A stretch of 47,950 bases of DNA from Candidatus Eiseniibacteriota bacterium (GCA_044222065.1 JBGAOA010000034.1:1-47950); one strand, 5' to 3'. Counted from the stretch's first letter, positions 9,064 to 46,355 are shown. The notes: generated from the letters alone by a model not told the origin. Numbers and translations are program-made.

Positions 9064-9247
9064 TTCGGCCTGGCCGTGATCATTCCGCCGAATTCCACCC
9101 CCCGCACAGGAGACCCGCTCCGACCGTCCATCGAACGCCCACCGCAACGAGAACTTCGTCCTAGAGGACCCCCTGCACGGAATCGGTTTCGATCTTCAGG
9201 TCCGCCGTTCGTCACCGTTTCTTCCCCTTCCTCGAGGAGTTCCCCCC

Positions 9248-15322
<6,075 letters not shown>

Positions 15323-15338
15323 CCGGCGGGCCCGTGGA

Positions 15339-15382
15339 AACGACCGGCGGCCGCTCCCTTCTTAGGGGCGGCCGCCGTCGTT
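15339..15382. terminator. GC-rich hairpin between convergent genes (possible bidirectional terminator)
   Basis: aacgac-c-ggcggccgc-t-ccc ttctta ggg-gcggccgcc-gtcgtt inverted repeat between the S8 stop and the anti-sigma stop. Confidence 0.55.
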
Positions 15383-15396
15383 CGCGGTGGTGGGGG

Positions 15397-16272
15397 TCAG
15401 CGAGCGGCGTCGAGTTCGCGCCGCACACGCATCGCGATCGCGGAGTCGCCGCCGCGCAGCGCACGCTCGAGCAGCGCCTGCGCCTCGGGCTCGCGGCCGC
15501 GCTGGCGCAGCACGAGCGCGAGGTCGAGCTGCACGGCGGGATCGCGCGGCGAGCGCTCGAGCGCGCGGCTCAGGAGCCGTTCGGCCGAGGCGAGCCGGCT
15601 GCGGCGGAACTCGACGTCGGCCGCGAGCACGAGCGTCGGCACGTGGTTCGGGTGCGCGGCGAGCAGCTCCTCGACGTAGGTCGCCGCGGCATCGAGCTCG
15701 CCGCCCGCGAGGAACGCGGCGAGGAGCCGCGCGCCCGCCTCGGCGTCGCGCTCTCCGCCCTCGTAAGCGGCCAGCGCACGACGCAACTCGGATTCGAGCT
15801 CCGGCGACTGGATGCCCTGACCCGAGCGCAATCCGCCCGGATCGCGCGCCGCCGCGCGCGCGCCGCCGGGCAGTACGAGCCCTTCGGCGGAACTGCGCTC
15901 GATCGCGCGCCTCACGGCGGGGGAGTGCTCGAGCGGGAGCGAGGGTTCGGGCAGGTTCGCGAGCACGGCCCACGCCCCGAGCGCCGCCGCGCCCGTCGCG
16001 GCGAACGCCATCGGCGCCCAGGAGCGCGTGCGACGCGAGCGCTGCGACGACCTCACCGCCACGCGTCCGGCGAGGTCCACGAGTTCGCCGTCGGGCTCGA
16101 ACGCCTCGGGACGCGAAAGCCACGCCGCGCGGTAGCGCACCGCATCGGCGTAGGCGGCCATACAGGTGCGGCACGTCGCGAGGTGGTCGCGCAACGGCCC
16201 GGCCTCGGCCTCCGAAAGCGCCCCCTCGGCGAGCGCAGCGAGCGCGTCGGTATTCACGTGCGTCCCGGTCAT
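15397..16272 (-). CDS. Zinc-finger (zf-HC2/ZAS) anti-sigma factor with TM helix and C-terminal TPRs
   Basis: HLATCRTC (HxxxCxxC), hydrophobic WAPMAFAATGAAALGAWAVLA segment, TPR-like helices (ALERSPRDPAVQLDLALVL). Lies 6 nt downstream of an ECF sigma gene. Confidence 0.88.
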   Translation of the reverse strand: MTGTHVNTDALAALAEGALSEAEAGPLRDHLATCRTCMAAYADAVRYRAAWLSRPEAFEPDGELVDLAGRVAVRSSQRSRRTRSWAPMAFAATGAAALGAWAVLANLPEPSLPLEHSPAVRRAIERSSAEGLVLPGGARAAARDPGGLRSGQGIQSPELESELRRALAAYEGGERDAEAGARLLAAFLAGGELDAAATYVEELLAAHPNHVPTLVLAADVEFRRSRLASAERLLSRALERSPRDPAVQLDLALVLRQRGREPEAQALLERALRGGDSAIAMRVRRELDAAR

Positions 16273-16278
16273 GAGCTC

Positions 16279-17157
16279 CTATTCCTCGCGGCGAAGACTG
16301 CGGCGCAGCCGCCTCACGATGCGGTCGATCGTCGTGTAGACCCCGCGCGCCTGGTCGAGACCGAGTTCCTCGGCGATCTGCGGCGCGGACCAGCCGCGCT
16401 CGAAGCGCATTTCGAGGACGGCCCGGTCCTTCGGCGGCAGCTCCGCGAGCGCCTCCTGCAACCGGCCCGCGGTGCGCTTCGCCTCTCGCTCCATCAGATG
16501 GTAGTCCGGGCTGAATGCTCCGGAGCGCTGCTCGTATTCGTCCCGAACGTGGTCGAGGTACTCGAGCAGTCGCCCGGACGACGCGCCGACGGACTGCGCG
16601 TAGAGGTCGTACGCGAGCCGGCGAAGCCATCGGTCGCCGAGCTGGCGCTCGATCTGGCGCAGACCCGCCATGAACCGTTCGATCGTCCAGGGATCGCCGG
16701 GGCGGTCGAGCTCGTCCACGACTTCACCCGCAGAGCGCCCTTCCACGTAGTAGAGGCGGAACAACCGCTGCTCGAGCGGGCTCAGGCGCGCGAGCACGCG
16801 AGCGCCGTGCGCCCGTCCGAAGCGGTGGCGCAGGTGGTCCATGACCGCCGATCGCGTGACCAGCGTCAGCCACGTCGAGAGGGACGCGCGGCCTTCGTAA
16901 GTACGCAGCTTGCCGCGACGGACCGCGGCCAGGACGTCGACGAACAGCGTCTGCACCTCGTCCGGATCGCGCGACCTCAGGTAGCGGCGCGCGATCGCGT
17001 GGATCAGCCCGGAGTACCGGGCGATGAAGGACTCCCAGGCGGCTTCGTCTCCGGCCACGACACGTCGAGCGAGCGCCACGTCTTCCGCGTTTCGTTCGGT
17101 ATCGGAGCCGGACGAACCGGTCACCGCGCGTGCCTGCTCAGGGGCTCGGAAGCTCAT
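16279..17157 (-). CDS. ECF-type RNA polymerase sigma factor, extended (start uncertain)
   Basis: Region 2 (GDEAAWESFIARY...YEGRASLSTWLTLVTRSAVMDHLR) and C-terminal region 4 (LAELPPKDRAVLEMRFERGWSAPQIAEELGL). Confidence 0.88.
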   Translation of the reverse strand: MSFRAPEQARAVTGSSGSDTERNAEDVALARRVVAGDEAAWESFIARYSGLIHAIARRYLRSRDPDEVQTLFVDVLAAVRRGKLRTYEGRASLSTWLTLVTRSAVMDHLRHRFGRAHGARVLARLSPLEQRLFRLYYVEGRSAGEVVDELDRPGDPWTIERFMAGLRQIERQLGDRWLRRLAYDLYAQSVGASSGRLLEYLDHVRDEYEQRSGAFSPDYHLMEREAKRTAGRLQEALAELPPKDRAVLEMRFERGWSAPQIAEELGLDQARGVYTTIDRIVRRLRRSLRREE

Positions 17158-17353
17158 GGATGTCGAGTCGCGGTCACCGGGCAAAGGAATGAGCACCGCC
17201 GGCCCACGGGGGGCCGGCGGCACCGAGGGGTCCCAGCTGTCTGATTGGACGGACGGTCCGCGCGGATTACGAGCCTTCGTCGTTCGCCCGGATGGCGAGC
17301 CGGGCGAGCTGGATTCGCTGGCGTGCCCGCCTCGCGGCAGAGTGTAATGAGGC

Positions 17354-20161
17354 GTGCGACGTTTCCGAAGCGCAATCCTGCTGATCCTCGCGGTGGGCAT
17401 CGGCCTCCTCGCGCGGGCGCCGAGCGCCCCGATCCAGGCCTGGCACGTGCGCCGGCTCGAGCAACTCGTTCCGGAACTCGATCCCGAGGTCGCCCGCCGG
17501 GTCGTCGATCGCGATGACGCGAAGTGGCTGACCTTCGCGCGCTCGATCGGCGTTCGCGGCCTCGCCGACGCCTACCAGGCCGTGATCGTCCGGCGGAACA
17601 CCTCGCCGCCGCGGGAACTCCTGGCGACGAGCACCGAACTCGGTCCGATCGCGTTTCGGATCGCCGACGCGTTCGCGCGCCTCTACGACTTCCGGGCGCC
17701 GCTCGAGGTGGAGAAGCAACTGCTCTCGTTCGACGAGTCCCGCAGGCTCGAACTGATGTCCCTCATGAGCCAGCAGTTCCATCTCATCATGGACCAGCGA
17801 CTGCCGCCGCTCGAGCGGCGCCGGCGCCTCGAGCAGGTCGTCGCGGGCATGGAGGCGCTCGGCGCGTGGCGCTCGGCCCTCCACTCCGAGCACGCGCTCG
17901 CGTCCGTGGACGCCGATCTCGGCGAGCCCGAGCGCCACCGCGCGCACCTCGAGTCCATCCTCGCGCGCGCGCGCGTGCTCGGCGAGCCGTACGTCGAAGC
18001 TCAGCTGCTCGGCGAACTCGGCAGCATTCACGCCGCGGCCGGCGAGGACGACTCGGTGCGCTTGTGCTACGACGAGGCCCTCGCGATCGCGCGCCGGCAC
18101 TCGTTCCTCGACCAGGCCGCGCGCATCCTGCGCTTCGACGCCGGATTCCACGCCGACCGGGGCCGGCTCGCGCTCGCGGCCGACCGGCTCACCGAAATGC
18201 TCCAGCTCTGCGACCTGCCGGAGGCGCGCTCCGCGCGCGTCCGCATGCAGATCGACTACGCGGCGTTCCTCGTTCGCACCGGGTGCTGGGACCTCGCCGC
18301 ACGCGTCCTGCGGCGCCTGCCTCCGCTCTTCCGTCAGTACCCGAGCGAGCGGTCGCGCCGCGACACCGAATCCCACCGGTTCGTCGCCGACCGGTTGCTC
18401 GCGCGGCTCGAGTTCGAGGACGGCGACGCGGAGGCGGGAGATCGCCAGATGCGCGAGCTCGCAACGCGCGTTCCGAGCGGCCGCCCGCGCGCGTGGCGCT
18501 ACGACCTGTTCCTCGACTGGACCGCGGGCCTCGTTTCGGTGGAGCGCTGGACGCGCGCGCTCGAGTTGTGTGAGCACGCGATCGTGTACGCCGACACCAC
18601 GCACGCCCCGGGGCAGGTGTTCCGGTACCGCCGGGCGCTCGCGCTCGAGCGGCTCGGTCGCTTCGACGAGCTCGATGGCGCACTCGTGCAACTCCGCGCG
18701 GACCTCGCCCGGGACTCGCTCGCGACCGACGCGCTCGCGCGCGACGTCGAACTGCTCGAGGTCAGCGAGTGCTACCACCGCGGCCGCACGGCCGAGGCCC
18801 GGGCGCGTCTCGGCGATTGCCAGCGGCGTTTCGAGCGCCGGCTCGCGGGGCGACAGAACGGCATGCAGAACTACCTCGAGGTGGATGAGGCGCGCGCGCT
18901 TCGCGCCGCGTGGCACCGGTACGGCGGACTGGATGCGGCGGCCGGCTACCGGCTCGAGTGCCGCTGGCGTTCGCTGTCGCAGCTGCTGCGGGGCGGGGGC
19001 GACACGCGCCTTCCGCCGCTGGAGTCCGATCTCGCGGGGGGCGCGCCGCCGGTGCTCGGCGACGGGGTCCATCTCGTCTATCACGTGGAGGGCGACCGCA
19101 CGCTGCGATGGACGGCGACCCGATCCGGCGTGCGGCTCGACACGCTCGCGCTGTCCTCGCGCGCGTGCCTCGAGCGCGTCAGGCACGCGCTGTCCGCACT
19201 GCAGACGGAGACGCCGCCGCCCGGCGCGCTGCTCGGGCCCGCGGCGCGCGCGGCGCTCGAGCCGCTCGCGCGCCTGCTGCTGCCCGCGCCGATCGCGCGC
19301 GAGGGCGCGAGCGGCCGGGCCGTCTTCGTCTCGGCCGACGGGCCGCTGCTCGCGCTGCCGTTCGAGGCGCTGCCCTTGCTCGCGACTCCCGGCCAGCCGC
19401 CGCTCGCGGCACTCGACGACGTCGCCTACGTGCACGGCTGGCGCGCGTCTCCGCTGCGCATCGGCGGGCGGCCGGTGATCGTCGCGAACCCCGAGATCCC
19501 GGGCGACCTTCGCCGCCGTTACGCGGCGGCGGGGCCGCTCGAGGCCGTGCCGGCCGAGGTCGCGGCGGCGAAGTCGCGCTGGCCGGAGGCGCGGGTCCTC
19601 GAGGGACGCGCGGCGACCAAGGAGAACCTGTTCGCGACCTGGCCCTCCGCGTCGGTGATCTACCTCGCGAGTCACCACGTGCGCGATCCCGACGCGCCCT
19701 TCCTCGGCTTCGTGCCGCTCGCCGTCCCCGAGGGCGGCGCCTCGAGCGACGCGCTGCTCGAGATCGCCGACGTCCACGGGCTCGACCTGTCCGCGTGCCG
19801 GCTCGTCGTGCTCGCCTCGTGCGCGAGCGGCGCGCCGTACCGGCTCGCGCGCCGGCCGGGTCCGAGCCTCGGCGAGGCGTTTCTCGACTCCGGCGCCGGG
19901 GCCGTGATCGAGAGCCTGTGGGAGGTCCGCGACGCCGAGGCCGGCGAGTTCATGCGCCGCTTCCTCGCCGCGGGTGGCGGCATTCGCGAGGACCTCTCGG
20001 CGTTGCAGTCCGCGCGACGACAGATGATGACGCGCGAACAGGGGTGCGCGCCCAGCGTGTGGGCCGCGTGGTCGGTCCACGTTCGGCTGCCGCGAACGAA
20101 CTCGGAATTCGCGCGTGCGCCGCATTCCGGGGTCTTCGCCATCGCCCCGCGCACGCGCTGA
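17354..20161 (+). CDS. TPR-CHAT (caspase-like, clan CD) domain protein with N-terminal signal/TM segment
   Basis: Helical repeat N-terminal half. CHAT motifs DGPLLALPFEAL, ATKENL, IYLASH (His), LVVLASCASG (Cys), AFLDSGAGAVIESLWEVRD and WAAW. Confidence 0.9.
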   Translation: MRRFRSAILLILAVGIGLLARAPSAPIQAWHVRRLEQLVPELDPEVARRVVDRDDAKWLTFARSIGVRGLADAYQAVIVRRNTSPPRELLATSTELGPIAFRIADAFARLYDFRAPLEVEKQLLSFDESRRLELMSLMSQQFHLIMDQRLPPLERRRRLEQVVAGMEALGAWRSALHSEHALASVDADLGEPERHRAHLESILARARVLGEPYVEAQLLGELGSIHAAAGEDDSVRLCYDEALAIARRHSFLDQAARILRFDAGFHADRGRLALAADRLTEMLQLCDLPEARSARVRMQIDYAAFLVRTGCWDLAARVLRRLPPLFRQYPSERSRRDTESHRFVADRLLARLEFEDGDAEAGDRQMRELATRVPSGRPRAWRYDLFLDWTAGLVSVERWTRALELCEHAIVYADTTHAPGQVFRYRRALALERLGRFDELDGALVQLRADLARDSLATDALARDVELLEVSECYHRGRTAEARARLGDCQRRFERRLAGRQNGMQNYLEVDEARALRAAWHRYGGLDAAAGYRLECRWRSLSQLLRGGGDTRLPPLESDLAGGAPPVLGDGVHLVYHVEGDRTLRWTATRSGVRLDTLALSSRACLERVRHALSALQTETPPPGALLGPAARAALEPLARLLLPAPIAREGASGRAVFVSADGPLLALPFEALPLLATPGQPPLAALDDVAYVHGWRASPLRIGGRPVIVANPEIPGDLRRRYAAAGPLEAVPAEVAAAKSRWPEARVLEGRAATKENLFATWPSASVIYLASHHVRDPDAPFLGFVPLAVPEGGASSDALLEIADVHGLDLSACRLVVLASCASGAPYRLARRPGPSLGEAFLDSGAGAVIESLWEVRDAEAGEFMRRFLAAGGGIREDLSALQSARRQMMTREQGCAPSVWAAWSVHVRLPRTNSEFARAPHSGVFAIAPRTR

Positions 20162-22233: not shown

Positions 22234-22616
22234 CGGTCCGGTCCGGGGCGACGCCGGGCGCGCCGCCCCCTGCCGGGCGAGCGCGTCCGGTCGAGTGCGG
22301 CGGAAACACGTCGCGCGGCGGCCCGAACCGTCAGTTCCGCTGACAGAATGGCGGCGGACTACCACGTCTCGGTGCCTCGCGCGGCGAGCCCGGCGCGCGC
22401 TCCCGCCGCTCGGCGACGAAATTCCTCTCGGCGGTTCACTTCGCCTCAACGTCGTACGCCAATCGCGGGCAGCGGGTTGAGGCGTGGTTTGGTGTGACTC
22501 GACCGCTCCGGTCGCGCCGTGCGAGCGCGCGGAGCGCTTTCGGCATCGCGCGGGCACCGCCGCTGCTACGAATGCCTCCCAACTCTGCGCGTTCGGCGCG
22601 GAGCCCGGGAGACTCC

Positions 22617-23453
22617 ATGCGGCACCGACCCGCATCCTCGACTCGCTCGCTCCACCCAATTCCCGTCCGCGCCGTCCTCGCGGCGCTGCTTTGTTCGTGC
22701 GCGCTGAGCCTCACCCTGCGCGCCCAGGAATCGCCGTCCCCCGCCGCGTCCTCCGCCGACTCGATCGCCGCCGTCGAGAGCGTCGCGGACTCGGCCGCGC
22801 AGGATTCGACGGGCGCCGCCGAGGTCACCGAGGAAGCTCCCTCCGGTGACGCCACGACGCCTCCCGCGCAGGTCTCGAAGTCGTTCGGCCACTGGGAGAC
22901 GGGCAAGAACCTGTTCGAGACCACCTGCCAGCCCTGTCACGGCCCCGTGGCCGAGGGCAACGAATCCATCGGTGCGCCGGCGCTCAACCGGCAGGAGCCC
23001 TGGTACCTGCTCGTCCAGCTCCGGAAGTTCCGCGCCGGGGTGCGGGGCGCGAAGGAGGACGACGTCGGCGGCCAGATGATGGCGCCGATGGCGATGTCGC
23101 TGCCCGACGAACAGTCGCTCCTCGACGTGGCGGTCTACGTCGCGAGCCTCGAAGGTCCTCCGCCCGCGCGCACGCTGCGCGGCGACCTCGCCGCCGGTGA
23201 GAAGACGTTCCGGACGATCTGCACGCCGTGCCACGGTCCGAACGGCATGGGCCGCCCGGAGATCCGCACGCCCGCGCTCTACGGGCAAGCGGACTGGTAC
23301 ATCGCGACCCAGCTCCGGAAGTTCCGCCGCGGGTTGCGCGGATACCACGACGACGACATCTCTGGCATGCAGATGCGCGGGATGGCGACGGCCCTCGCTT
23401 CCGATCGCGCGATCGTGAACGTCGCGTCCTACATCGCGAGCCTCGCGAAGTGA
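22617..23453 (+). CDS. Diheme cytochrome c (c4/c553-like), exported
   Basis: GGAG then ATG 22617, signal peptide, acidic linker. CQPCH and CTPCH are each followed by PALxxQxxWY..QLRKFR and a Met-rich axial-ligand region. Confidence 0.92.
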   Translation: MRHRPASSTRSLHPIPVRAVLAALLCSCALSLTLRAQESPSPAASSADSIAAVESVADSAAQDSTGAAEVTEEAPSGDATTPPAQVSKSFGHWETGKNLFETTCQPCHGPVAEGNESIGAPALNRQEPWYLLVQLRKFRAGVRGAKEDDVGGQMMAPMAMSLPDEQSLLDVAVYVASLEGPPPARTLRGDLAAGEKTFRTICTPCHGPNGMGRPEIRTPALYGQADWYIATQLRKFRRGLRGYHDDDISGMQMRGMATALASDRAIVNVASYIASLAK

Positions 23454-24208
23454 CTCATGACGTCCGACTTCGGATTCGCGTCGGCCTCGGTGCGGTGCTC
23501 GCCGCCGTCGTGGCGCTGCCGGCGCTCGTCGCACCGGTCGCAGGGCAGTGGCCCGGCGGCTCCACGATTCCCGAGACGTTCCACGACCTCACGCATCCCG
23601 CGCGGATCTCGCCCATGTCGGGAATGATCTCGAACTACGGTCAGGCCTGCGTCTACTGCCACGCGCCGCACGGCGGCGGCGGCGAGCGACCGCTGTGGAA
23701 TCGGCGGCTCCCGAACGGCCCGTATCGAATGTACGAAGGCCCGCTCGACATGCTCGCCGATCCGCAACCGACCGGAGTCTCGCGCCTCTGCCTGTCGTGC
23801 CACGACGGCACGATCGGGCTCGACGACGTGCAGGTGCGTCCGATCGCCTACAGCGGACCGGGGCCGCGGCGCGAAACGATCGAGCGCTGCGCGACCGACT
23901 GCCACAACGGCGGCGACCCCGAGGCGGGCCTCAACTGGGAGAACGTCTGGTTCCGGCCCGACGACCTGCGCAAGCAGCACCCGATCTCGCTCGTCTACGA
24001 CGCCTCGCGCGACGCGGGGTTCAACCCGGCCGGCGCCGTGCTCGCCGCCGGACTGGTGCTCGAGGACGGCCGGATCCAGTGCGCGACGTGTCACGAGCCG
24101 CACAGCGAGCAGTACCGCCCGTTCCTGCGCATTCCGAACACGAACGGGAGCCTGTGCCTCGTGTGTCATCGCACGACGCCGTCGCGCTCGACCGCCCACT
24201 TCTGGTGA
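23450..24208 (+). CDS. OmcE-like multiheme cytochrome c (4 CxxCH plus one CxxxCH)
   Basis: GTGA overlap with the upstream stop; signal peptide. HDLT, CVYCHAPH, PLWNR, CLSCHDG, CATDCH, DLRKQHPI, CATCHEPH and PFLR...SLCLVCH. Confidence 0.88.
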   Translation: MTHDVRLRIRVGLGAVLAAVVALPALVAPVAGQWPGGSTIPETFHDLTHPARISPMSGMISNYGQACVYCHAPHGGGGERPLWNRRLPNGPYRMYEGPLDMLADPQPTGVSRLCLSCHDGTIGLDDVQVRPIAYSGPGPRRETIERCATDCHNGGDPEAGLNWENVWFRPDDLRKQHPISLVYDASRDAGFNPAGAVLAAGLVLEDGRIQCATCHEPHSEQYRPFLRIPNTNGSLCLVCHRTTPSRSTAHFW

Positions 24209-24212
24209 CGAC

Positions 24213-25421
24213 GTGAACGCTCCGATTCCCCCGCGCTTCCGTGCCGTTCCGCCGCTCGTCCTGCTCGCGCTCGGCGCCGCGCTGTCCGCGGGCGCGGCGC
24301 GTGCACCCGAGGCGCCGCTGCTCGTCTGGCCTCCGCCGCCGGACAGCGCTCGCATCCGCTGGGCGGGCGCGTTCGACCACGGCGAGGGCGCGCGCGCGGG
24401 CGTGTTCGAGTCGCTCAAGCGTTTCGTGACCGGCGCCGGGCCGCGCGCGGAAGAGCGGCTCGTGCGACCCACCGACGTGTACGCCGAGGACAGCGCCTAC
24501 GTGTACGTGACCGACGCCGCGCAGGGCCGGATCCTCGTGCGCGACCGGAACCGGCGTGCGTTGCGGACGCTCGCCGTTCCGGCGGGGGCCGCTCCGGCGC
24601 GCCCGATGGGCATCGGCGGCGACGGCCGCGGGCGGATCTACGTGACGGATCCGCCGAACCGCCGCGTGGTCGTGCTCGAGCGCGACGGACGTTTCGTCCG
24701 CGCCTTCGGCGGTCGCGGCGTGCTGCTCAATCCCGTGGACGTCGCGGTGGACACCGCGGCGGGCCTCGCGTGGGTCGCGGACAGCCACCTGCACCAGGTG
24801 CTCGCGTTCGATTCGGAAGGGCGCTGCGTGCGAGCGCTCGGTCTCGCGAACGGCGATGCGAACGCGAAGCCCGTCGAACACGAGACGCCGGAGACGCCCG
24901 AGGAGCGCTCGCTCGCCGAGGTGCACCGCGCGGCGGCGGGCTCGCGCGACGTGCGCGAGAACCGTGGCGCCGGGCCGGGCGAGTTCCTGTTCCCGTGCGG
25001 CGTCGCCGTCGCCGCCGACGGGACGCTGTTCGTGAGCGACGGGCTCAACGGCCGCGTGCAGGTGTTCGCGCGCGACGGCGCCTTCCGACGCGAGTTCGGC
25101 CACCTCGGCGACGTGCCGGGCACGTTCGCGCGGCCGAAGGGCATCTCGCTCGACCGCGACGGCAACGCCTACGTCGTGGATGCCGCGTTCAACAACGTCC
25201 AGATGTTCGACCCCGAAGGACGGCTGCTGCTCGCGTTCGGCGCGTTCGGCAGCGGCCCCGGGGAGCTGTGGCTGCCGCTCGGCGTGTGGGTGGATCGCGA
25301 CGACCGCATCTACGTCGCCGACCGCTACAACGGCCGGGTGCAGGAGTTCACGAGGCTCGGAGCGGGCGCTCGGCCCGTTTCCGGCGCGGATCGCGGCGCA
25401 GGAGCGCGCGAGTCCCGATGA
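24213..25421 (+). CDS. NHL-repeat beta-propeller protein, exported
   Basis: Signal peptide, WPPPPDSARIRW, repeated PxxxAxDxxGxxYVxDxxNxRVQxF blades. Confidence 0.92.
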   Translation: MNAPIPPRFRAVPPLVLLALGAALSAGAARAPEAPLLVWPPPPDSARIRWAGAFDHGEGARAGVFESLKRFVTGAGPRAEERLVRPTDVYAEDSAYVYVTDAAQGRILVRDRNRRALRTLAVPAGAAPARPMGIGGDGRGRIYVTDPPNRRVVVLERDGRFVRAFGGRGVLLNPVDVAVDTAAGLAWVADSHLHQVLAFDSEGRCVRALGLANGDANAKPVEHETPETPEERSLAEVHRAAAGSRDVRENRGAGPGEFLFPCGVAVAADGTLFVSDGLNGRVQVFARDGAFRREFGHLGDVPGTFARPKGISLDRDGNAYVVDAAFNNVQMFDPEGRLLLAFGAFGSGPGELWLPLGVWVDRDDRIYVADRYNGRVQEFTRLGAGARPVSGADRGAGARESR

Positions 25422-25432
25422 AAGGAGGAGAC

Positions 25433-26119
25433 ATGCGTTCGCTTCACGTCATCCGAGTCGCGTGCGCGGTGGTGAGCGTGCTCGCGGCGATCGCGGTTCC
25501 GGTCTCGGCGCAGGCGCCGGGAGCCTGGCCGAACGGCACGTCGGTCGTCGAGACGCTGCACAACTTGTCGTACGCCGCGTCCTCGGATCGCTACGGTCCC
25601 GGAGCGCTCCGCAACTACGGCGAAGTGTGCGTCTACTGCCACACGCCGCACGGCGGACAGGCGAGCGCGCCGCTCTGGAATCGGAACTTCTCGACCGCGT
25701 CCTACCAGATGTACGACGCGAACCACAGCTCCACGATCAACATGACCGTGGATCCGCAGCCGACGGGCGTCTCGCTCGCGTGCCTCTCGTGTCACGACGG
25801 CACGGTCGGTCTCGACGTCATCGTCAACACTCCGAACAACTACACGGGCGGCCCGGCGGTCGGGACGCGCATGCCGTCGAACATCCTCCCGAATCTCGGC
25901 ACCGACCTGCGGAACGATCATCCGGTCTCGGTGACGTACGACCCGACCGCGGATCCGTTCTTCCGCACGGCGGCGTCGGTTCAGGCGGCGGGGCTGCAGC
26001 TCTACACGGGCAAGGTGCAGTGTGGCAGCTGTCACAATCCGCACACCGCGGCGAATCGACCGTTCCTCAGGATCTCGAACGCGGGCAGCAGTCTGTGCCT
26101 CACCTGCCACATCAAGTAG
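25433..26119 (+). CDS. omcE: OmcE-family tetraheme cytochrome c (candidate nanowire subunit)
   Basis: AGGAGG RBS, signal peptide. HNLS, CVYCHTPH, PLWNR, CLSCHDG, NLGTDLRNDHPV, CGSCHNPH and PFLRISNAGSSLCLTCHIK follow the motif order I recall for Geobacter OmcE. Confidence 0.85.
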   Translation: MRSLHVIRVACAVVSVLAAIAVPVSAQAPGAWPNGTSVVETLHNLSYAASSDRYGPGALRNYGEVCVYCHTPHGGQASAPLWNRNFSTASYQMYDANHSSTINMTVDPQPTGVSLACLSCHDGTVGLDVIVNTPNNYTGGPAVGTRMPSNILPNLGTDLRNDHPVSVTYDPTADPFFRTAASVQAAGLQLYTGKVQCGSCHNPHTAANRPFLRISNAGSSLCLTCHIK

Positions 26120-26120
26120 C

Positions 26121-27032
26121 GTGCGACGCCTCGCCGCACTGATCGTCCTCGGCGCGCTGCTCGCGGGCTGCGGGAGCGTGGTCCGCGCGTTCCTCGACGT
26201 GCCCGCGCCGAAGCCGGCCGCCACGGTGCCGGCGGCGGCGCACGTCGTCGTGCGCGAGGACTCGATCGTCGCGCGGCCTCTGCTCGAGACGACGCTCGAT
26301 CCGGACAGCGTGCTCGCGCTGCTGCCGCGCGACTGGATCGGGCACGCCGACTGGGTGGCCGCGCTCCAGAAGGGCCTGATCCGCCCGCGTCCGGCGATCG
26401 GCGCGCGCTTCGAGGACGGACCGGCGCCGTTCGGATTCGACTTCTACTTCGCCGGCAAGGACTCGTCGTTCGATGCGTTCTTCCCGCACTCGGTCCACTC
26501 GCAGATCATCGCCTGCAATCACTGCCACGGCCGGATCTTCCGCTACCGGAACATGCGTTTCACGATGGAGGACCTGCTCGCGGGGCGCTACTGCGGCGAG
26601 TGCCACAGCAAGGTGTCGTTCCCGGTCGTGTCCGGCTGCGATCGCTGCCATCCGCGCATCAAGCTCCCGGCCCGGCGCACCGAAGCCCGCCTGCTCGGCA
26701 CGGTGCAGATGGCGCGCGTGACGGACGGCAGCGGCATGGCGCCGAACACTCCGGACGCCGATCTGCCGCCGGCGCGCTTCCCGCACTGGGTGCACCGCAT
26801 CCGCTATCAGTGCCGCGTGTGCCACGTGCAGATCTTCGAGCCGCGCGCCGGCGCGAACCGCATGACGATGAAGGACATCTCCGAAGGCCGCGCGTGCGGG
26901 CGCTGTCACGACGGCACGACCGCGTTCCGCGCCGGATTCGGAAACTGCCAGCGATGCCACGTGGCGGGACCTCCGCCCGCGCCGGTGGACACGACCGGGG
27001 TGGATTCGCTGCTGCTCCGGGTGCGGGGATGA
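26121..27032 (+). CDS. Lipoprotein hexaheme cytochrome (two c7-type triheme domains)
   Basis: Lipobox LLAG-C. FPHSVH..CNHCH..CGECH..CDRCH and FPHWVH..CRVCH..CGRCH..CQRCH. Confidence 0.92.
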   Translation: MRRLAALIVLGALLAGCGSVVRAFLDVPAPKPAATVPAAAHVVVREDSIVARPLLETTLDPDSVLALLPRDWIGHADWVAALQKGLIRPRPAIGARFEDGPAPFGFDFYFAGKDSSFDAFFPHSVHSQIIACNHCHGRIFRYRNMRFTMEDLLAGRYCGECHSKVSFPVVSGCDRCHPRIKLPARRTEARLLGTVQMARVTDGSGMAPNTPDADLPPARFPHWVHRIRYQCRVCHVQIFEPRAGANRMTMKDISEGRACGRCHDGTTAFRAGFGNCQRCHVAGPPPAPVDTTGVDSLLLRVRG

Positions 27033-28972
27033 CACGGCGGCGGTGCGCGGCCGCGCTCGCGATCGCCGCGGCGTGCGCGTGCGGCGGCGCCTCCGCCGAG
27101 CCGGTCGGACTGCTCCGCGTCGGCAACGGCGGCGAGGCGGGCGTTCGCTGGGAATGCGCGAACGGTCGCTCGGCCGGGCGCCCGGGCGTGAGCGAGACGA
27201 ACGTGCGCGCGTGGACCGCCGCGTCGCTGGAGGGGCGTCTCGCGAGCCGCCGATGGCTGACGTACGCGTGGGTCGCGCGACCGAGCGTGGTGCGGAGCGA
27301 CGGGAAACTGAACCTCGCTTCGTCCACGACCGAGGAATTCGCGCACGACCTCACGCTCGTCTCGCGGCCCGCACCGTGGATCGGGGCCCAGGCGACCGCC
27401 TCGCGCGACCGGATCGTCGCCGATCGCGGGCCCGACGCGGCGCGCGAGTCGCGCTTCCGGCGCGAGGAGGCGCGCGGCGACCTGCGCCTGCCATTTGCGA
27501 GCCTCGGTGCGATCGGGCGTCGCGAGCGATCCGACGAGCGCTGGACGTCCTCGGCGCTCGCGCCCGAACTCGAGCGCCACGTCGAGCGCTCGAGCGCCGA
27601 GACGTTCCTCGAGTCGAGCCGCATGCGGCTCTCGCACCGCAACGCGCGCGAGCGCGTGCCCGAGAACGCCACGGACGTCGAGACGCGCCAGACGAGCTTC
27701 GACCACACGCTGCCGTGGGGACACGGCAGTCAGCTGCGCACACGGCTCGAATGGGCGGACCAGTCGGGCAACCGGCTCACGTTCGTGGACCGCTCCGCGC
27801 AGGAGAACCTGCGCGTGCGTCACGCTCCGTGGCTCACGAGCGACTACGCTGCTCCGGCGCACGCACAGCCGGCTCGTCGCGGGCGAGGGCACCGATCTCT
27901 CGCACGCCTACGAGATCGCGGCGCGCACGGAGGGCTGGGCGCTCGGTCTCGGCGCGAGCTTGCGTGACGATCGCTCGCCGGGGCGCGCGGGCCGCGCGCT
28001 CTCGTACGGGCCGCGCGTCGGCATCCAGCGCGGATTCGCGAACGGCGTGCGCGTTGCCGCGGACGCCGCGCTGCGCGCCGAGCGCGAGCGCCGCACGGGC
28101 GCGGCGGACGCGCGCCTCGCGGTGCCCGACGAACCGCACGACGTCCCGGCGACGCGCCAGTTCGCACTCGACCTCGAAGGCGTGGACTCGGCGACCGTCG
28201 TCGTGCGCGACGCGCAGGGCTCGCCGCGCTTCGTCGCCGGCCCGGACTACACGATCGTGCGTTCGGGCGAGCGGACCTTCGTCGAGATCCCGCCCGGCAG
28301 CTCGATCGCCGTCGGCGACGTGCTCCGCATCGGCTACGAGGCCGTGCCCCCGGGAACGCCGCGCCGCAGCGGATCGAGCGCCGAGTTCGGCGTCGGCGCG
28401 GACTGGCGCGGCCTGTCGCTGCGCTTCGAGGACCGCCGGCGCTCCTCGCGCGACCGGCCGGTCGATCGCGGCGCCGCCGCACTCGGCTCGAGCGAGCGCG
28501 CGTGGCTCGCGTCGTGGCTCGCGACGCGCGACGCGCCCCCGTGCGCTGGGACGCCGGCGCGTCGCTGCGCGAGCGCAGGATCGAATCCCGCCGTTCGCGC
28601 ACGTCCGACCTGCACGCGGGCCTCACGTGGCGCTGGTCGAACGCGCTCACCGGTTCGCTCGACGCCTCGAGCGCCGCGGCGAGCGAGGCCGCGTCCGAAC
28701 TGACGTCGCGCGTCTACCGCACGAGGCTCGACTGGCTGGCGGGACCGTGCGCGCTCGGCCTCCGCGCGGAGTACTCGAACTTCCGCCGCGCGGGCTCGGC
28801 CGAGACTCGCCAGCGATCGCTCGGCGGCGACGCATCCCTGCGCTGCGGCCGGCTCGACGCGGCGCTGCGGCTCGACCTCGGCTCGCGCGACGGCGCCGAC
28901 GATTCCGAGCCGTGGCATCGTTCCCGCCGGGCATCCGACCGTGCCGGTGGGTCGCTCGTCCGACGGTTCTAG
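27029..28972 (+). CDS. Probable outer-membrane beta-barrel (porin) of the cytochrome cluster; frameshifted near 27848 and 28537
   Basis: ATGA overlap with the upstream gene and a signal peptide. Alternating amphipathic strands run across ORFs 26600.., 27495.. and 28502..; the chain ends in ...SLVRRF (terminal Phe). Confidence 0.65.
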
Positions 28973-30568: not shown

Positions 30569-31042
30569 TCAGCCGAGGTGCGCCTCGACGAACCAGAGAT
30601 CCTTGTCCACCTCGCGCGAGATCTCGGTCGCGAGGTCGGCGCTGTCCGCGTCACCGAGGCTCGCGAACGCGTCGATCGCCGCGCGCACGTTCGCGCCAAA
30701 CGCGGCGAGCGCGAGCGACAGCCGCTCGACGTGTCCCTTCTCGGCGACGAGGTCGAGCGGGTAGGGCTCGAGCCGCGTCGCGCGCGCCGCGGCCTGCAGC
30801 GTGCCGTGCGGCTGGCCGCCGAGCGCCGCGATGCGTTCCGCGATCGAATCGCTCCATTCGCCGCCGTGCGCGTACACGTCGTCGAACAGCTTGTGGAGGG
30901 CGATGAAATTCGGACCGCGCACGGCCCAGTGCGCCTGCTTCGCCTGCATCGTGATGTCGGCGGCGTCCGCGAGCAGCTGATTCAAGTCCGCGCTGACCTG
31001 CACGCGGATCTTCTCGGCGAGATCGTTGTGGGTGTGGGGCAT
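30569..31042 (-). CDS. dps: DNA starvation/stationary phase protection protein Dps
   Basis: KQAHWAVRGPNFIALHKLFD, DSIAERIAALGG and DKDLWFVEAH. Confidence 0.95.
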   Translation of the reverse strand: MPHTHNDLAEKIRVQVSADLNQLLADAADITMQAKQAHWAVRGPNFIALHKLFDDVYAHGGEWSDSIAERIAALGGQPHGTLQAAARATRLEPYPLDLVAEKGHVERLSLALAAFGANVRAAIDAFASLGDADSADLATEISREVDKDLWFVEAHLG

Positions 31043-31166
31043 GGAGGACCTTTCTTTCCGGCCGCGCCGCCGCCGCCGGAGCGCGGAGTGCGAACCCCGG
31101 CGACGGTCGCGTCGTGCCCGCGCAGGGTACGCCGAAGCGCGCCCGGCGTCGCCCGGCCCCCGCCGC

Positions 31167-32594
31167 TCAGCGCACCCGCACGAGCCGCGCGTACGCGCGC
31201 GCTCCGCCGGCTTCGAGCGTCACGAAGTAGATCCCCGGAGCGGCGGATCTTCCCGACGCGTCGCGCCCGTCCCACGTGAAGTCGTGCGCACCGGCGTCGA
31301 ACGCGCCGCGCGCGGGTTCGGCAACGCGCCGGCCCTGCGCGTCCACGATCGCGAGCCGCGCCTCGCCGGCCCGCTCGAGCGTGAAGCCGAGCCGCACCGC
31401 GCCGCGCGCGGGGTTGGGCGAGGGGCTCGCGAGCGCGAGCGATCCCGTTTTCGCGGACTCGACCGCGACCGGGTCCACGACCGGGATCAGCAGCACCGCG
31501 TGCGCGATGCCGCCCGTCGCGGCGGTCGCGGCGATCCAGCCGTCGGCGTTCACGTCGGACGTGCCGAACACGGTCCAGCCGGCGCCGGAGGCGTCGAGCC
31601 GCGCGTTCAGGTCCCAGAGTCCGTCGGCGTTCCACATCACGACGCGTTCCTCGAGCGTCGGCCACGGGAACACGCTCGTATCGATGAGCCGTGAGAACCC
31701 GAACACGGTCGCGCCCGACGGGTCCACGAGCGTCGCCACGCCCGCGTTGTGGCCGGGCCAGATCGGGAGTTCGGCCGGCACGTGCGCGGCGTCGCGCGAC
31801 CAGCGCGTCGGACGGTCGAGCCCGAACGGGTACATCGTGTAGCCGACGGCGTCCCCGAGTTCGTTCATCGTGCCCGGCATGCTCTGGTCCGAGTTCGCGA
31901 GCGGCTCGAGCAGCACGGGCGTGTGGGCGGCGTCGGCTTCCCAAATCGTCGCGCGGTCGCCGGGATTGAGTCCCGTGCGGCCGAAGACGCGGCCCGTTTC
32001 CGTAATGGACTGCGCCTCGGTCCAGGCCGTGAGCGGATCGCCCGACGGATGCAGCGGGAGGATCGTCCGATCGAAGCGTCCGGGCTGGTTCGGGCGTTCG
32101 ATCCAGATCGCCGCGTCCCAGTTGCCGCCGCCGCCGCTCTTCGTGAGGAAGCCGCACACGACGCCGGCGTCGTTCACGTCGAACGCGTAGATGTTCGCGT
32201 TCCCGTCCGCGCCGGACTCGATGTCGACGACCTGGCCGTTCCGCCAGAGAACCGCTCGCGGCTGAGGATCGGCGGTGTTGCTGTGGCCGGCGATCCAGCC
32301 GCTCGCGTTCATGCCGTAGGCGGAGCTCCAGTCGAAGCCCGGCAATCCGCCGAGGTCGGTGACCTGCAGCACGACTCCTTCGGCGGAGACGTCCCAGCGG
32401 GTGGCGTGGCCGCCGAACGTGGCGGGAACCTCGGAGCGTCCGAGCACGGCGCCGCCGACGCCGAAGCGGGCCGCGGTGGAGGCGGTGGCGCCGGGCGCGA
32501 AGCCCAGGTCCACGAGCCGGTAGAGGGGAGCGGACGCGGCGGGCGTGGCAGTGAGGAGCGCGAGGACGCAGGCGAGCGCGAGCGGACGCGACAT
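31167..32594 (-). CDS. Secreted HAF-like extracellular repeat protein with FlgD-like tail
   Basis: Signal peptide then PLYRLVDLG. Repeats of SAYGMNASGWIAG / AFDVNDAGVVCG, DLN..L....W, HAVLLIP. C-terminal PSPNP...WDGRD...GIYFVTL. Confidence 0.85.
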   Translation of the reverse strand: MSRPLALACVLALLTATPAASAPLYRLVDLGFAPGATASTAARFGVGGAVLGRSEVPATFGGHATRWDVSAEGVVLQVTDLGGLPGFDWSSAYGMNASGWIAGHSNTADPQPRAVLWRNGQVVDIESGADGNANIYAFDVNDAGVVCGFLTKSGGGGNWDAAIWIERPNQPGRFDRTILPLHPSGDPLTAWTEAQSITETGRVFGRTGLNPGDRATIWEADAAHTPVLLEPLANSDQSMPGTMNELGDAVGYTMYPFGLDRPTRWSRDAAHVPAELPIWPGHNAGVATLVDPSGATVFGFSRLIDTSVFPWPTLEERVVMWNADGLWDLNARLDASGAGWTVFGTSDVNADGWIAATAATGGIAHAVLLIPVVDPVAVESAKTGSLALASPSPNPARGAVRLGFTLERAGEARLAIVDAQGRRVAEPARGAFDAGAHDFTWDGRDASGRSAAPGIYFVTLEAGGARAYARLVRVR

Positions 32595-35170: not shown

Positions 35171-35380
35171 GGCGCCTCCTTTCCCGGACGAACGCAATCG
35201 GGCGCTCGAGCGGGACAGGGCGCGAGCGCGCCCGGCGCTCCCGCGGGCTGCGGCCACGCCGCGGCGCGCACCGCCGCGTCGCGAGCGGGGAGATTTCGTG
35301 AAACTGAATGAAACGCGGAATCCCCCGTCGCGGACCACGCACACACGGCCATCCCCACGTGTCCCGACAGGAGGAGTCCC

Positions 35381-36886
35381 ATGTCGCAGACGCTTGCCCG
35401 CCTCACCCGCGCCGCGCTGCTCGCCCTCGTCCTCGCCGTCGCGTCCGGGGTCGCGCCGCCCGGGACGGTTCACGCCGCGCCGTCGCCCCGCACGGAGACG
35501 CCGGCGCTCGGCTCCCACGTCGTGCTGTCGTGGAACGACCTCGGCATGCACTGCATGAACAAGGACCACGCCGACTTCTCGGTGCTGCCGCCGTTCAACA
35601 ATCTCTCGGCCCAGGTGATCGAGCGCGGCGATGACACGCGCCTGCCGCGGATCGTGACGGGCGGCGTCTCGCTCGAGTACTCGATCCCGGGCAACACGAC
35701 CTCGGTCGGGAAGACCGATTTCTGGACCTACGCGCAGGCGATCTTCGGCGTCCAGCTGCCGCCGGACGTGGGCCTCGCGGGCAAGGGCCTCACGGGCTCG
35801 CTCGACCTCGTCGGCACGCACTACGCCGCGATCGGCATTCCCGTGACGCCGTTCACGGACGCGAACCCGACCGTCGAGAACCCCTACCAGCAGGCGCTCG
35901 TGATCGCGCGCGATCCCGTCGGCGCCGAACTCGCGCGCAGCACCCCGGTGATCCCGGTCTCGACCGAGATCAACTGCGTCAGCTCTGGATGCCACTCGAG
36001 CATCAACTCGATCCTGAACGGTCACCCGCGCGTGACCGGTTTCGATCCGAACACGCGTCCGATCCTGTGCGCGCGCTGCCACGCGAGCCCGGCGCTCGGC
36101 ACGACCGGAAACGCGGAAGCGGGCTACTTCTCGTTCCGCATTCACGACCAGCACCAGTTCATCGACACGCAGATCCCGGGCATGGACGGCTGCTACAAGT
36201 GCCATCCCGGTCCGAACACGAAGTGCCTGCGCGGCGCGATGAACGACCGGCACGGACTCACGTGCCAGAACTGCCACGGCACGATGCTCAACGTGGCGCG
36301 CACGATCGAGAACGGACGAGTCCCGTGGGCGAACGAGCCGGCGTGCGGCGGCTGCCACCTGCCGCAGTTCGCGGAGCCCGCGGGGCAGCTCTACCGGAAC
36401 AGCGCCGGGCACGGCGGCGTGATGTGCGAGGGATGCCACAACAGCACGCACGCCGACCTGCCGAGCCGCGAGCCGGCGGACAATGCGAACAACATCGCGC
36501 TCCAGGGCTACGCCGGCACGCTGCGCGAATGCGCCGTGTGCCACGGCACGACGCCGAGCGGTGCGGGGCCGCACGGCGTGCTCGTCGCGGACGTCGAGTC
36601 GCAGGCGCTGGGCGGTGCGATCAGGCTCGCGGTGTCGCCGAACCCGGTGCGCACGTCGTGCAGCATCGAGCTGCCGCGCGGACGCGCGGGCGAAGGCCGA
36701 CTTCTCGTCTTCGACGCGACGGGCCGCACGGTGCGCGCGATGGACGTCACGTCCCGGACGGACGGCGGCCGCGTGACGTGGGACGCGCGCGATCAGCGCG
36801 GCGCGGCGGTCCCCGCCGGCACGTACTTCGTGCGCTGGCAGCAGGACGAGCGGCAGGCGGGCGCGCGCGTCGTCGTCGTGCGCTGA
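35381..36886 (+). CDS. Multiheme cytochrome c (6 CxxCH plus one CX4CH) with C-terminal FlgD/T9SS-like tail
   Basis: AGGAGG RBS, signal peptide, N-terminal SWNDLGMHC domain. CVSSGCH, CARCH, CYKCH, CQNCH, CGGCH, CEGCH and CAVCH. Tail VSPNP...FDATGRTVR...WDARD...AGTYFVR. Confidence 0.92.
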   Translation: MSQTLARLTRAALLALVLAVASGVAPPGTVHAAPSPRTETPALGSHVVLSWNDLGMHCMNKDHADFSVLPPFNNLSAQVIERGDDTRLPRIVTGGVSLEYSIPGNTTSVGKTDFWTYAQAIFGVQLPPDVGLAGKGLTGSLDLVGTHYAAIGIPVTPFTDANPTVENPYQQALVIARDPVGAELARSTPVIPVSTEINCVSSGCHSSINSILNGHPRVTGFDPNTRPILCARCHASPALGTTGNAEAGYFSFRIHDQHQFIDTQIPGMDGCYKCHPGPNTKCLRGAMNDRHGLTCQNCHGTMLNVARTIENGRVPWANEPACGGCHLPQFAEPAGQLYRNSAGHGGVMCEGCHNSTHADLPSREPADNANNIALQGYAGTLRECAVCHGTTPSGAGPHGVLVADVESQALGGAIRLAVSPNPVRTSCSIELPRGRAGEGRLLVFDATGRTVRAMDVTSRTDGGRVTWDARDQRGAAVPAGTYFVRWQQDERQAGARVVVVR

Positions 36887-45343: not shown

Positions 45344-45669
45344 CGTCGTTCGGGCGCGAGTCCGCCTCGTTCGTCGGAGCCACTCGTCGTTCGTCGTGCG
45401 AATCGCACGCGAGCGGAACCGCGGTCGGAGCCTTTCCGTAGGTCCGGACGTCGAGAGCAGGCGAGCGAAGCGTACGATCGCGCTCGCCGAAGTGGTTCGG
45501 AGCGGTCGCGAAATCCGGCCGGCGCAAGCCGGCGCCACTCGAGGCTCGCTCCAGTCGGGGACGCACCGAAGCTCGCGATCCCGCACGCGCCGTCGCGACG
45601 ACGGCACGCATCGGAGTGCGAGGCACCGCGAAGCCGCCGGTTCCGTCCCGCAGCAGGGAGGGAACGGTC

Positions 45670-46355
45670 ATGAGGATCACGCGGACTCCGTGGATCGTGG
45701 CCGCGCTCGCGGCCATCGCGGTGTCGGGCACCGCGTCGCGCGCACGTGCCGAGGACGGACAGGCCGTTGCGGCGGCGCGCATCGCGCTGCAGCGCGAGTG
45801 CGTGGCGCGCGAGGCGTATCGCGCCTACGCCCTGCGGGCCGACGAGGAGTGCGTCGCGCCGGCGGCCGTGCTCTTCCGCGCGCTGGCCGCGGCCGAGGAC
45901 GTGCACGTGCGCAACCACGCCCGCGTACTCGAGGCGCTGGGTGCGACGCCCGCGTCCGAGCCCGTGCGCGTCGAGGCCGGCACTACCGCGGCGAACCTCC
46001 AGGCCGCGCTCGACGGCGAGATCTACGAGCGGCGGACCGCGTACGCAGGCTTCATCGCCTACGCGCGGCAGGAGTGCCTCTACGACGTGCTCGCGTCGTT
46101 CCGCTGGGCCCGCGATGCCGAAGCGACGCACGCGATCCGGCTCGCGCTCCTGCTCGCGCAGTTCGACGCCGGGCGCTTCGGGCCGCGCGCGTGGCCGTCG
46201 CGAGCGCCACGCCGCTCGAGGCGCACTACTACGTGTGCTCGGGCTGCGGCCGCGTGACCACCGAGCCGCCCGTGCGTCACTGCGCGTGCGGTACGCCGTC
46301 GGCGCAGTGCGCCGTCTTCACCGGCCCCGGCCTGCTCCCGCGCCGCCGCTGCTGA
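45670..46355 (+). CDS. Rubrerythrin-family protein with signal peptide; frameshift near 46195
   Basis: E..A...Y..YA..ADEE...A.LFRA.A.AEDVH, TTAANLQAALDGEIYE and AEATH diiron motifs. Rubredoxin-like YYVCSGCG...CACG in the next frame. Confidence 0.85.

Follow-up and report, generated by a model that had tools for sequence, protein, structure and literature searches.

A five-haem, histidine-tailed OmcE-like cytochrome encoded beside a tetrahaem paralogue in Candidatus Eiseniibacteriota: a candidate end subunit for cytochrome nanowires

Two OmcE-like paralogues in one operon

The window analysed here is a stretch of 47,950 nucleotides from a Candidatus Eiseniibacteriota bacterium (GCA_044222065.1, JBGAOA010000034.1:1-47950). 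It carries on its plus strand a six-gene operon encoding, in this order, a dihaem cytochrome c, an OmcE-like pentahaem cytochrome (A), an NHL propeller, an OmcE-like tetrahaem cytochrome (B), a lipoprotein with a double c7 domain and a putative barrel protein, and these genes overlap or stand no more than 11 bases apart (Table 1). The G+C content of the window is 72% throughout; gene limits were set by homology and by inspection of start sites, with the G+C content at codon position 3 as a rough guide only. We focus on A and B, of which B is most likely a polymerising subunit of the OmcE type and A most likely a low-copy partner that docks on the open end of B.

A sequence-only reading of this DNA had described two OmcE-like paralogues with a number of common blocks, and this description holds: both open reading frames (ORFs) are present, 44% of about 240 aligned residues are identical (E 6e-64), and all the blocks listed (WPxG, NYGxxCVYCHxPH, PLWNR, DPQPTGVSxxCLSCHDGTxGLD and PFLRIxN..SLCLxCH) appear in their alignment, as does an N-terminal arm motif, WPxGxxVxET.HNL. 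When PDB chains were searched with phmmer, both proteins matched OmcE of G. sulfurreducens (7tfs_A; 4.6e-29 for B over residues 21-228, 2.5e-17 for A) and the OmcE bundle of D. soudanensis (9yuq_N; 2.7e-25 and 1.1e-16, respectively). An AlphaFold2 model of A built from an alignment of 22 rows was unusable (predicted local distance difference test, pLDDT, 51.9), and the model obtained with an alignment of 137 rows (pLDDT 91.7, predicted template modelling score 0.84) was used instead; Foldseek returned 7tfs as its sole PDB match (E 6.8e-7, TMq 0.54, TMt 0.66). Pfam and NCBIfam contain no OmcE-specific model and gave generic haem-motif domains only (Paired_CXXCH_1, Cytochrome_C7). The decahaem and Nrf families of these two collections were rejected as assignments for A and B, since their scores were far under the cut-offs. 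A has a predicted signal peptide (residues 1-32), after which the mature chain would begin with QWP. Judged from their sequences, both proteins are secreted cytochromes of the c type and belong to the OmcE family.

B resembles OmcE (7TFS, 9YUQ) over its whole length, with four CXXCH motifs, four more conserved histidines, one of them in the N-terminal arm, and a chain that ends after haem 4, two residues past the last motif (CLTCHIK). Across 88 aligned rows the putative haem ligands H43, H163 and H204 of B are invariant, and H73 is conserved in at least 90%. The ATG start of gene B lies 4 nt past an AGGAGG; this ribosome-binding site and the CHIK end had both been pointed out before and are confirmed. 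A, by contrast, departs from the standard subunit, which is tetrahaem and ends after the haem-4 motif, in having five motifs and a 12-residue tail. Both the CATDCH insertion between haems 2 and 3 and the C-terminal extension are present as the sequence-only reading had described them, and A can be classed as an OmcE homologue but not as a standard subunit.

The extra haem motif, the upstream methionine and the tail histidine

The extra motif was followed in the 96 closest matches to A (P0003-P0098) and in the two alignments, of 22 and 137 rows, mentioned above. The sequence-only reading had made its claim of an inserted fifth haem motif depend on conservation of CX3CH. A haem motif is kept at the site in 93 of the 96 close relatives, two having none and one being truncated, but the CX3CH form accounts for 31 of these motifs and plain CXXCH is commoner (62); in relatives with about 80% identity to A, CTSCH or CTGCH stands in place of CATDCH. 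Since the site as such is conserved, the claim survives the test that was set for it, although the particular CX3CH form is not general. Moreover, C147, C151 and H152 are invariant in 22/22 rows of the smaller alignment, which contains exactly ten invariant histidines for five haems, namely the five motif histidines together with H45, H74, H177, H218 and H250, and in addition an invariant Met56. On this conservation we take the fifth motif of A to be real, and a haem c is predicted to be bound covalently to Cys147 and Cys151 with His152 as ligand.

The N-terminal histidine that OmcE-type subunits donate is retained, His45 of A being invariant in 137/137 rows of the larger alignment. The corresponding motif, [TS]xH[ND][LFM], occurs in 92/93 A-type proteins, 87/102 four-haem proteins and 72/76 modules of multihaem proteins that look like UetJ, the undecahaem component of uet clusters (the 12-motif proteins were equated with UetJ by architecture only).

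The tail histidine is found in 92 of the 96 close relatives, so that in this set the fifth motif and the tail nearly always occur together, a point in favour of the possibility, weighed below, that A polymerises by itself. One relative, P0074, has the tail and a degenerate fifth motif; being a single sequence, it was not used as evidence. Over a wider range of proteins the two features come apart. A methionine at positions -13 to -8 before the haem-1 cysteine is present in 90/93 A-type and 29/44 tail-less five-haem proteins, as against 8/102 tail-less four-haem proteins and 1/76 of those with at least 11 haems, and thus tracks the inserted haem (119/137 five-haem forms versus 9/178 forms without it). 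If histidine is counted along with methionine, 36 of the 44 tail-less five-haem proteins have one or the other upstream of haem 1. A histidine at +9 to +11 past the last core motif, on the other hand, is found in 93/93 A-type proteins and also in 69/76 UetJ-like modules, which are without the inserted haem. Tail-less five-haem relatives (P0093, P0107, P0108 and a protein of locus L004, 9989-10690) have the short CX3CH insertion of A and end in CHNI or CHDI; in the alignment they offer only nine histidines for five haems, the methionine being kept. The gene in L004 is the only small OmcE-like gene of its locus and adjoins that of a 21-motif cytochrome.

These distributions indicate that the two features of A, the extra haem with its methionine and the tail with its histidine, are separable at the level of sequence. 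We therefore prefer His152 and Met56 as the probable ligands of the extra haem and assign a different job to His250.

Pairing of A with B and the possible role of A

In a gene-context survey of 79 loci, A-type genes were found in four (L001, L002, L003 and L007), each adjoining a tail-less four-haem gene of the B type; together with the window the pairing thus holds in 5/5. Roughly 90 A-type proteins are known from metagenomes only and lie outside this survey. L001 and L002, from metagenome-assembled genomes (MAGs) of Candidatus Eisenbacteria, have the same gene order as the window, including a homologue of the dihaem cytochrome gene upstream of A, and the proteins of L001 are 81% (A) and 94% (B) identical to those of the window. 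The Gemmatimonadota MAGs L003 and L007 have the same layout minus the dihaem gene, no homologue of which was found in these two loci. B-type clusters without an A-type gene occur in L005, L008, L014, L032 and L076. In all five paired loci the B-type gene is preceded by AGGAGG, GGAGG or AGGAG and then ATG, whereas a Shine-Dalgarno site was found for the A-type gene in 0/5, its start abutting or overlapping the upstream stop. In the window the GTG start of gene A overlaps the TGA stop of the dihaem cytochrome gene (GTGA), and the same junction reads ATGA in L001, so that the two genes appear to be translationally coupled. The sequence-only reading had taken B for the abundant filament subunit and A for a minor initiator, cap or branch subunit. 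B does carry the marks of a major subunit (its end after haem 4 and the strong ribosome-binding site conserved in 5/5) and A those of a minor one (no such site in 5/5, a coupled start); the notion of a branch subunit gained no specific support.

Mature B (residues 27-228) and mature A (residues 33-252) were modelled as a complex in three runs, each chain with its own alignment and without haems. The ipSAE values of the B-A complex were 0.70, 0.71 and 0.74, compared to 0.02 for the best of three controls; the mark applied to this score is reached by 116/157 solved complexes and 2/215 mismatched pairs, and is a rough one here because own alignments were used. Contact agreement among the runs was at least 98% and partner pLDDT at least 84. 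All runs placed the arm and haem-1 side of A (residues 39-41, 48, 64-68, 73-82, 129-133, 205 and 218) on the haem-3/4 end of B (residues 94, 98-101, 152-163, 176, 200 and 209-228) and left the tail end of A free. The interface includes the last residues of B, 227-228, and the tail of A begins at the equivalent point; such a complex would thus have the tail directed away from B, at the docking site of a further subunit. Prediction of hetero-oligomers had been proposed as a check on the sequence-only reading, and the B-A model passes its controls.

With regard to the origin of A, a tree was made of 120 modules, a seeded random pick from 312 (192 were left out), with tails excluded, by a quick IQ-TREE search with support from the Shimodaira-Hasegawa-like approximate likelihood ratio test (SH-aLRT) only. 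The A-type proteins group in a single clade (SH-aLRT 100), which lies inside the clade of the four-haem proteins from the same phyla (98); A thus arose by duplication of the local B-type subunit gene. The sister of the whole A-type clade is P0096, a four-haem, tail-less protein with an A-like N-terminus, including the methionine before haem 1, that may be intermediate or may have reverted. UetJ-like modules group apart, in a clade of their own, and descent of the A-type from them was rejected since the tree nests the A-type inside the local four-haem clade.

In addition to OmcE and a large barrel, the minimal omcE cluster encodes two multihaem cytochromes and two propeller lipoproteins, and propeller plus barrel serve as the criterion for nanowire-capable OmcE homologues (Petersen et al., mBio 2026, PMC13712944). 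The cluster in the window likewise has a beta-propeller (NHL, 2.5e-22), further multihaem cytochromes and a putative large barrel, the last being without a family match and frame-shifted; it differs in having one propeller gene instead of two, a class-I dihaem cytochrome and the second OmcE paralogue, A. Candidatus Eisenbacteria are not among the five phyla listed for OmcE homologues in PMC13712944. The same paper reports five-CxxCH OmcE-like proteins of uncultured bacteria as perhaps a new family of OmcE nanowires, with the extra haem modelled as solvent-exposed, and pentahaem OmcE homologues are also mentioned in a survey of Desulfuromonadia (PMC11492766). A is similar to these five-motif proteins in being OmcE-like, of similar length and equipped with one additional haem motif. 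However, those of Petersen et al. are presented as forming a self-polymerising 'leaky' wire, and the available text mentions no C-terminal His tail, Met correlate or four-haem operon partner. Five-haem OmcE-like proteins are thus already published. In the literature covered, without the supplement of PMC13712944, no mention was found of the pairing of A and B in one operon, of the His tail or of the Met correlate.

The uet (undecahaem electron transfer) cluster of Tenderiales, with Candidatus Tenderia electrophaga, and of some Gallionella, linked to electron uptake, contains tetrahaem UetA, barrel UetC, c7 trihaem UetD/E/G, NHL propellers UetH/I and undecahaem UetJ (bioRxiv 10.1101/2022.05.06.490989; PMC10734462), and further a prolyl isomerase, UetB, and a cupredoxin, UetF (bioRxiv 10.1101/2022.05.06.490989). 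The window unites a UetA-like tetrahaem cytochrome, an NHL propeller, a c7 trihaem protein and, with the caveats attached to it, a putative barrel. No undecahaem protein, prolyl isomerase or cupredoxin, the counterparts of UetJ, UetB and UetF, was found within the window, where A stands in the place that UetJ would take, and strictly speaking the cluster thus does not count as uet. No paper with both Uet names and OmcE was found in a whole-word literature search. In the survey, 57 loci hold a protein of 9-13 haems whose N-terminal module matches OmcE (8.6e-24 for L012), and 35 of the 57 also hold a tail-less four- or five-haem partner. A propeller gene stands directly upstream of 43/50 UetJ-like and 20/60 tail-less genes; the corresponding 0/3 for A-type genes is unreliable, as stop-to-stop ORFs merge in L007. 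Within L012-L079 (e.g. L020, L036 and L043) the order four-haem OmcE-like protein, NHL, NHL, 12-motif cytochrome recurs, in Planctomycetota, Verrucomicrobiota, Ignavibacteria, Calditrichota, Gammaproteobacteria and others.

Taken together, these results suggest the following arrangement, in which polymerisation, ligand assignments, capping, the filament end taken by A and the direction of electron flow are steps that we infer. B, with four bis-His haems, would be the abundant subunit of a head-to-tail polymer in which, after the manner of OmcE, a subunit completes a haem of its neighbour with its N-terminal His arm. With the donor arm and its His45 retained, A could bind to a B subunit at the open acceptor end of the latter. 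The tail of A, 12 residues long, would leave the chain exactly at the docking place of the next subunit, and we tentatively propose that His250 ligates the putative acceptor haem of A itself and thereby ends the chain, while the extra haem (CATDCH), more exposed and with His152 and Met56 as ligands, forms a side port for electrons that may serve the dihaem cytochrome whose gene is coupled to that of A. Such a role has an analogy, drawn by Petersen et al. (PMC13712944), in the PapH-type terminators of chaperone-usher pili, which are paralogues of the major subunit, encoded in the same operon and present in low amount, and which can donate but not accept. Fold and chemistry are unrelated, PapH acting by donor-strand exchange and A, according to our proposal of capping, by His-haem ligation. 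Whether A would sit at the cell-proximal or the distal end, as initiator or terminator, depends on the direction of growth.

How cytochrome nanowires start, stop and attach to the cell has been openly named as a gap: in their Discussion, Petersen et al. ask how filaments terminate and what the tip is, predict an OmcE-like anchor with nine histidines for four haems, or a tip with a more exposed haem, and state that OmcE operons encode no candidate for either tip or anchor (PMC13712944). A is a concrete candidate with simple sequence marks (tail His, extra haem, upstream Met) and relatives in two little-studied phyla, and the comparison brings together what has been published about omcE nanowires and about uet clusters for electron uptake. 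Ligation of the extra haem by His and Met, if indeed present, would give a wire that is bis-His elsewhere an unusual site of high potential. A more general picture can be drawn, though we consider it doubtful: OmcE-type wires would have dedicated end subunits beside the main subunit, marked by a His at about +10 that completes an open haem of its own chain and stops growth, and uet and omcE would be one kind of machine in which the His/Met haem of A connects a low-potential wire with a periplasmic uptake chain of high potential. End subunits would then have arisen at least twice, as the short five-haem A-type of Eisenbacteria and Gemmatimonadota and as the N-terminal module of 11/12-haem UetJ-like proteins in many phyla.

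The alternative that survives best is that A polymerises by itself, either as a separate five-haem 'leaky' nanowire or by random mixing into B filaments, with His250 as sixth ligand of the solvent-exposed inserted haem in every subunit. Such a wire was proposed for five-motif OmcE-like proteins from AlphaFold3 models (PMC13712944), A has both the donor His45 and all four core distal histidines, and ten invariant histidines would suit five haems that are all bis-His if subunits exchange one His. Yet an A-type gene never stands alone, having a B-type neighbour and lacking a ribosome-binding site where B has one in each of the five loci, and the tail of A begins at residues that form the interface in B. 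The near-constant company of fifth motif and tail among close relatives has to be set against the +10 His of UetJ-like modules that have no inserted haem, and against inserted haems without a tail, for which a Met or His upstream of haem 1 is usually available. On the side of self-polymerisation, a tail-less five-haem gene is the only OmcE-like gene in L004, L009 and L025, and a five-haem form may plausibly be the main subunit. On balance we regard polymerisation of A itself as unlikely, though a serious contender.

A second possibility, improbable in our view, places A outside the filament, as a monomeric pentahaem carrier, periplasmic or lodged in the barrel, that connects the dihaem cytochrome or the c7 lipoprotein with the exterior and whose N-terminal His folds back on its own haem. 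The coupling of A to the dihaem gene in the window, L001 and L002 agrees with this, but L003 and L007 have A and B without a dihaem match. A cytochrome inside a barrel is the porin conduit of the Uet model (bioRxiv 10.1101/2022.05.06.490989), and the surplus of histidines could make A self-sufficient as a monomer; the heterodimer model, however, uses the OmcE-type head-to-tail surface with high confidence relative to the controls, and the arm motif common to A and B suggests the same docking site. That neither A nor B polymerises, both being ordinary small multihaem carriers which share with OmcE the fold only, we hold to be very unlikely: the superfamily is indeed huge (4560 cluster representatives at E<=1e-3, 1981 at E<=1e-10) and filaments have been solved for only two members, but B has all eight haem-ligand histidines and the C-terminal end of OmcE, the cluster holds the propeller and putative barrel that mark nanowire clusters, and the head-to-tail contact is reproduced in the heterodimer model. 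Equally little credence is given to decay of the locus in this genome, with the barrel gene a pseudogene and the cytochromes disused, as the two frame shifts relative to the single barrel ORF of L001 and the intact state of other long genes in the window (e.g. ORFs of 2080 aa and 1026 aa) might suggest, since A, B, propeller and c7 genes are intact and close to those of L001, and two single-base errors in an assembly of such high G+C content are an equally simple explanation.

Several points weigh against capping by A as we propose it. The number of ligands would be matched just as well by His250 on the extra haem and a Met56 that serves in packing only, and the tail is the least confident part of the A model (pLDDT 76 for residues 241-250 and 54 for residues 251-252). 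The Met and haem counts are drawn from related sequences and are not independent, so that Fisher p-values computed from them overstate the independence. In 53 twelve-motif UetJ-like proteins there are 28 conserved histidines, 16 of them outside the motifs, for 12 haems, and the +10 His of these proteins could thus serve a downstream haem; with UetJ-like modules in a clade of their own, the tail of A may moreover not share descent with the tail or linker of UetJ. The pass of the heterodimer model may reflect memory of the solved OmcE filaments 7TFS and 9YUQ, and the model covers the B-A pair in one order only, with three runs that differ by seed alone. It should also be kept in mind that a Shine-Dalgarno site, present or absent, tells only roughly how abundant a protein is, that A keeps every residue needed by a polymerising subunit and could still polymerise, and that the frame shifts in the barrel gene may mean either an inactive system in this genome or sequence errors.

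The other genes of the operon and the window

In the dihaem cytochrome an N-terminal hydrophobic anchor is followed by a long acidic linker of low complexity; loops rich in Met occur in its two CXXCH domains. The protein matches Pfam Cytochrom_C (1.8e-20, two stretches) and Cytochrome_CBB3 (3.5e-13), and its score against NCBIfam ccoP (1.1e-13) is under the cut-off of that family. Homologues of the NHL propeller occur in most related loci. The c7 lipoprotein matches NCBIfam TIGR04257 nanowire_3heme (1.5e-35) and Pfam Cytochrome_C7 (1.5e-25), in two stretches each. No third OmcE-like gene was found within the window.

The last gene of the operon probably encodes an outer-membrane barrel. Its product gave no Pfam match and no named family; the Atlas contains unnamed look-alike clusters of 650-690 aa and a Porin_4 lead (0.89) that is under the Atlas's own threshold. 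In the window the gene is spread over three frames, with shifts near 27847-27852 and between 28496 and 28616, whereas the L001 homologue (13567-15456) is one ORF; it is either a pseudogene or carries two sequence errors.

Table 1. Positions of the operon genes and of sequence features of A and B within the window
Feature	Position	Strand	Remarks
Dihaem class-I cytochrome c (c4/CcoP-like)	22494..23453	+	likely start ATG 22617
Gene A, OmcE-like pentahaem cytochrome	23450..24208	+	252 aa
A His45 (ETFHDL)	23582..23584	+	N-terminal 'donor' His of OmcE-type subunits
A Met56	23615..23617	+	11 residues before haem-1 Cys; invariant in 22-row alignment
A haem motif 1, CVYCH	23648..23662	+	aa 67-71
A haem motif 2, CLSCH	23789..23803	+	aa 114-118
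A extra haem motif, CATDCH (CX3CH)	23888..23905	+	aa 147-152; insertion between core haems 2 and 3
A core haem 3 motif, CATCH	24080..24094	+	aa 211-215
A core haem 4 motif, CLVCH	24155..24169	+	aa 236-240
A C-terminal tail, RTTPSRSTAHFW	24170..24205	+	12 residues
A tail His250	24197-24199	+	10 residues past last motif His
NHL-repeat six-bladed beta-propeller protein	24213..25421	+	signal peptide; Pfam NHL 2.5e-22; DUF5128 8.3e-15
AGGAGG Shine-Dalgarno site of gene B	25423..25428	+
Gene B, OmcE-like tetrahaem cytochrome	25433..26119	+	228 aa
B motif CVYCH	25628-25642	+
B motif CLSCH	25781-25795	+
B motif CGSCH	26021-26035	+
B motif CLTCH	26096-26110	+
Lipoprotein with two c7-type trihaem domains	26121..27032	+	six CXXCH; lipobox LLAGC
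Putative large outer-membrane barrel protein	27029..28972	+	~640 aa, ends in Phe; three frames: 27029-27967, about 27852-28496, about 28616-28972

Ferritin/Dps-like and rubrerythrin genes lie near the cytochrome operon, at 30569-31219 (minus strand) and 45442-46257 (plus strand), and would fit an organism that meets oxygen or iron stress. Together with the c4/CcoP-like dihaem gene and the likeness to uet they give a hint of electron uptake rather than metal reduction, which is speculation at this stage.

A further cytochrome gene, at 35312-36886 (plus strand), is unrelated to A and B; its product of 524 aa, in which CXXCH occurs six times, gives a c7-like match (1.3e-7) and carries a FlgD Ig-like domain at the C-terminus (1.4e-7). 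Such a domain also ends the product of a 2080-aa ORF at 9080-15322 (plus strand), a subtilase (Peptidase_S8, 8.6e-58) with many Ig-like domains, and may be a secretion or sorting tag common to both proteins. The region 15397-20161 lies just upstream of the ORF of an M3-like peptidase and of the cytochrome operon. It codes for a TPR protein, for a member of the sigma-70 family whose N-terminus carries a long extension, and for a 936-aa protein with a CHAT domain (2.4e-32).

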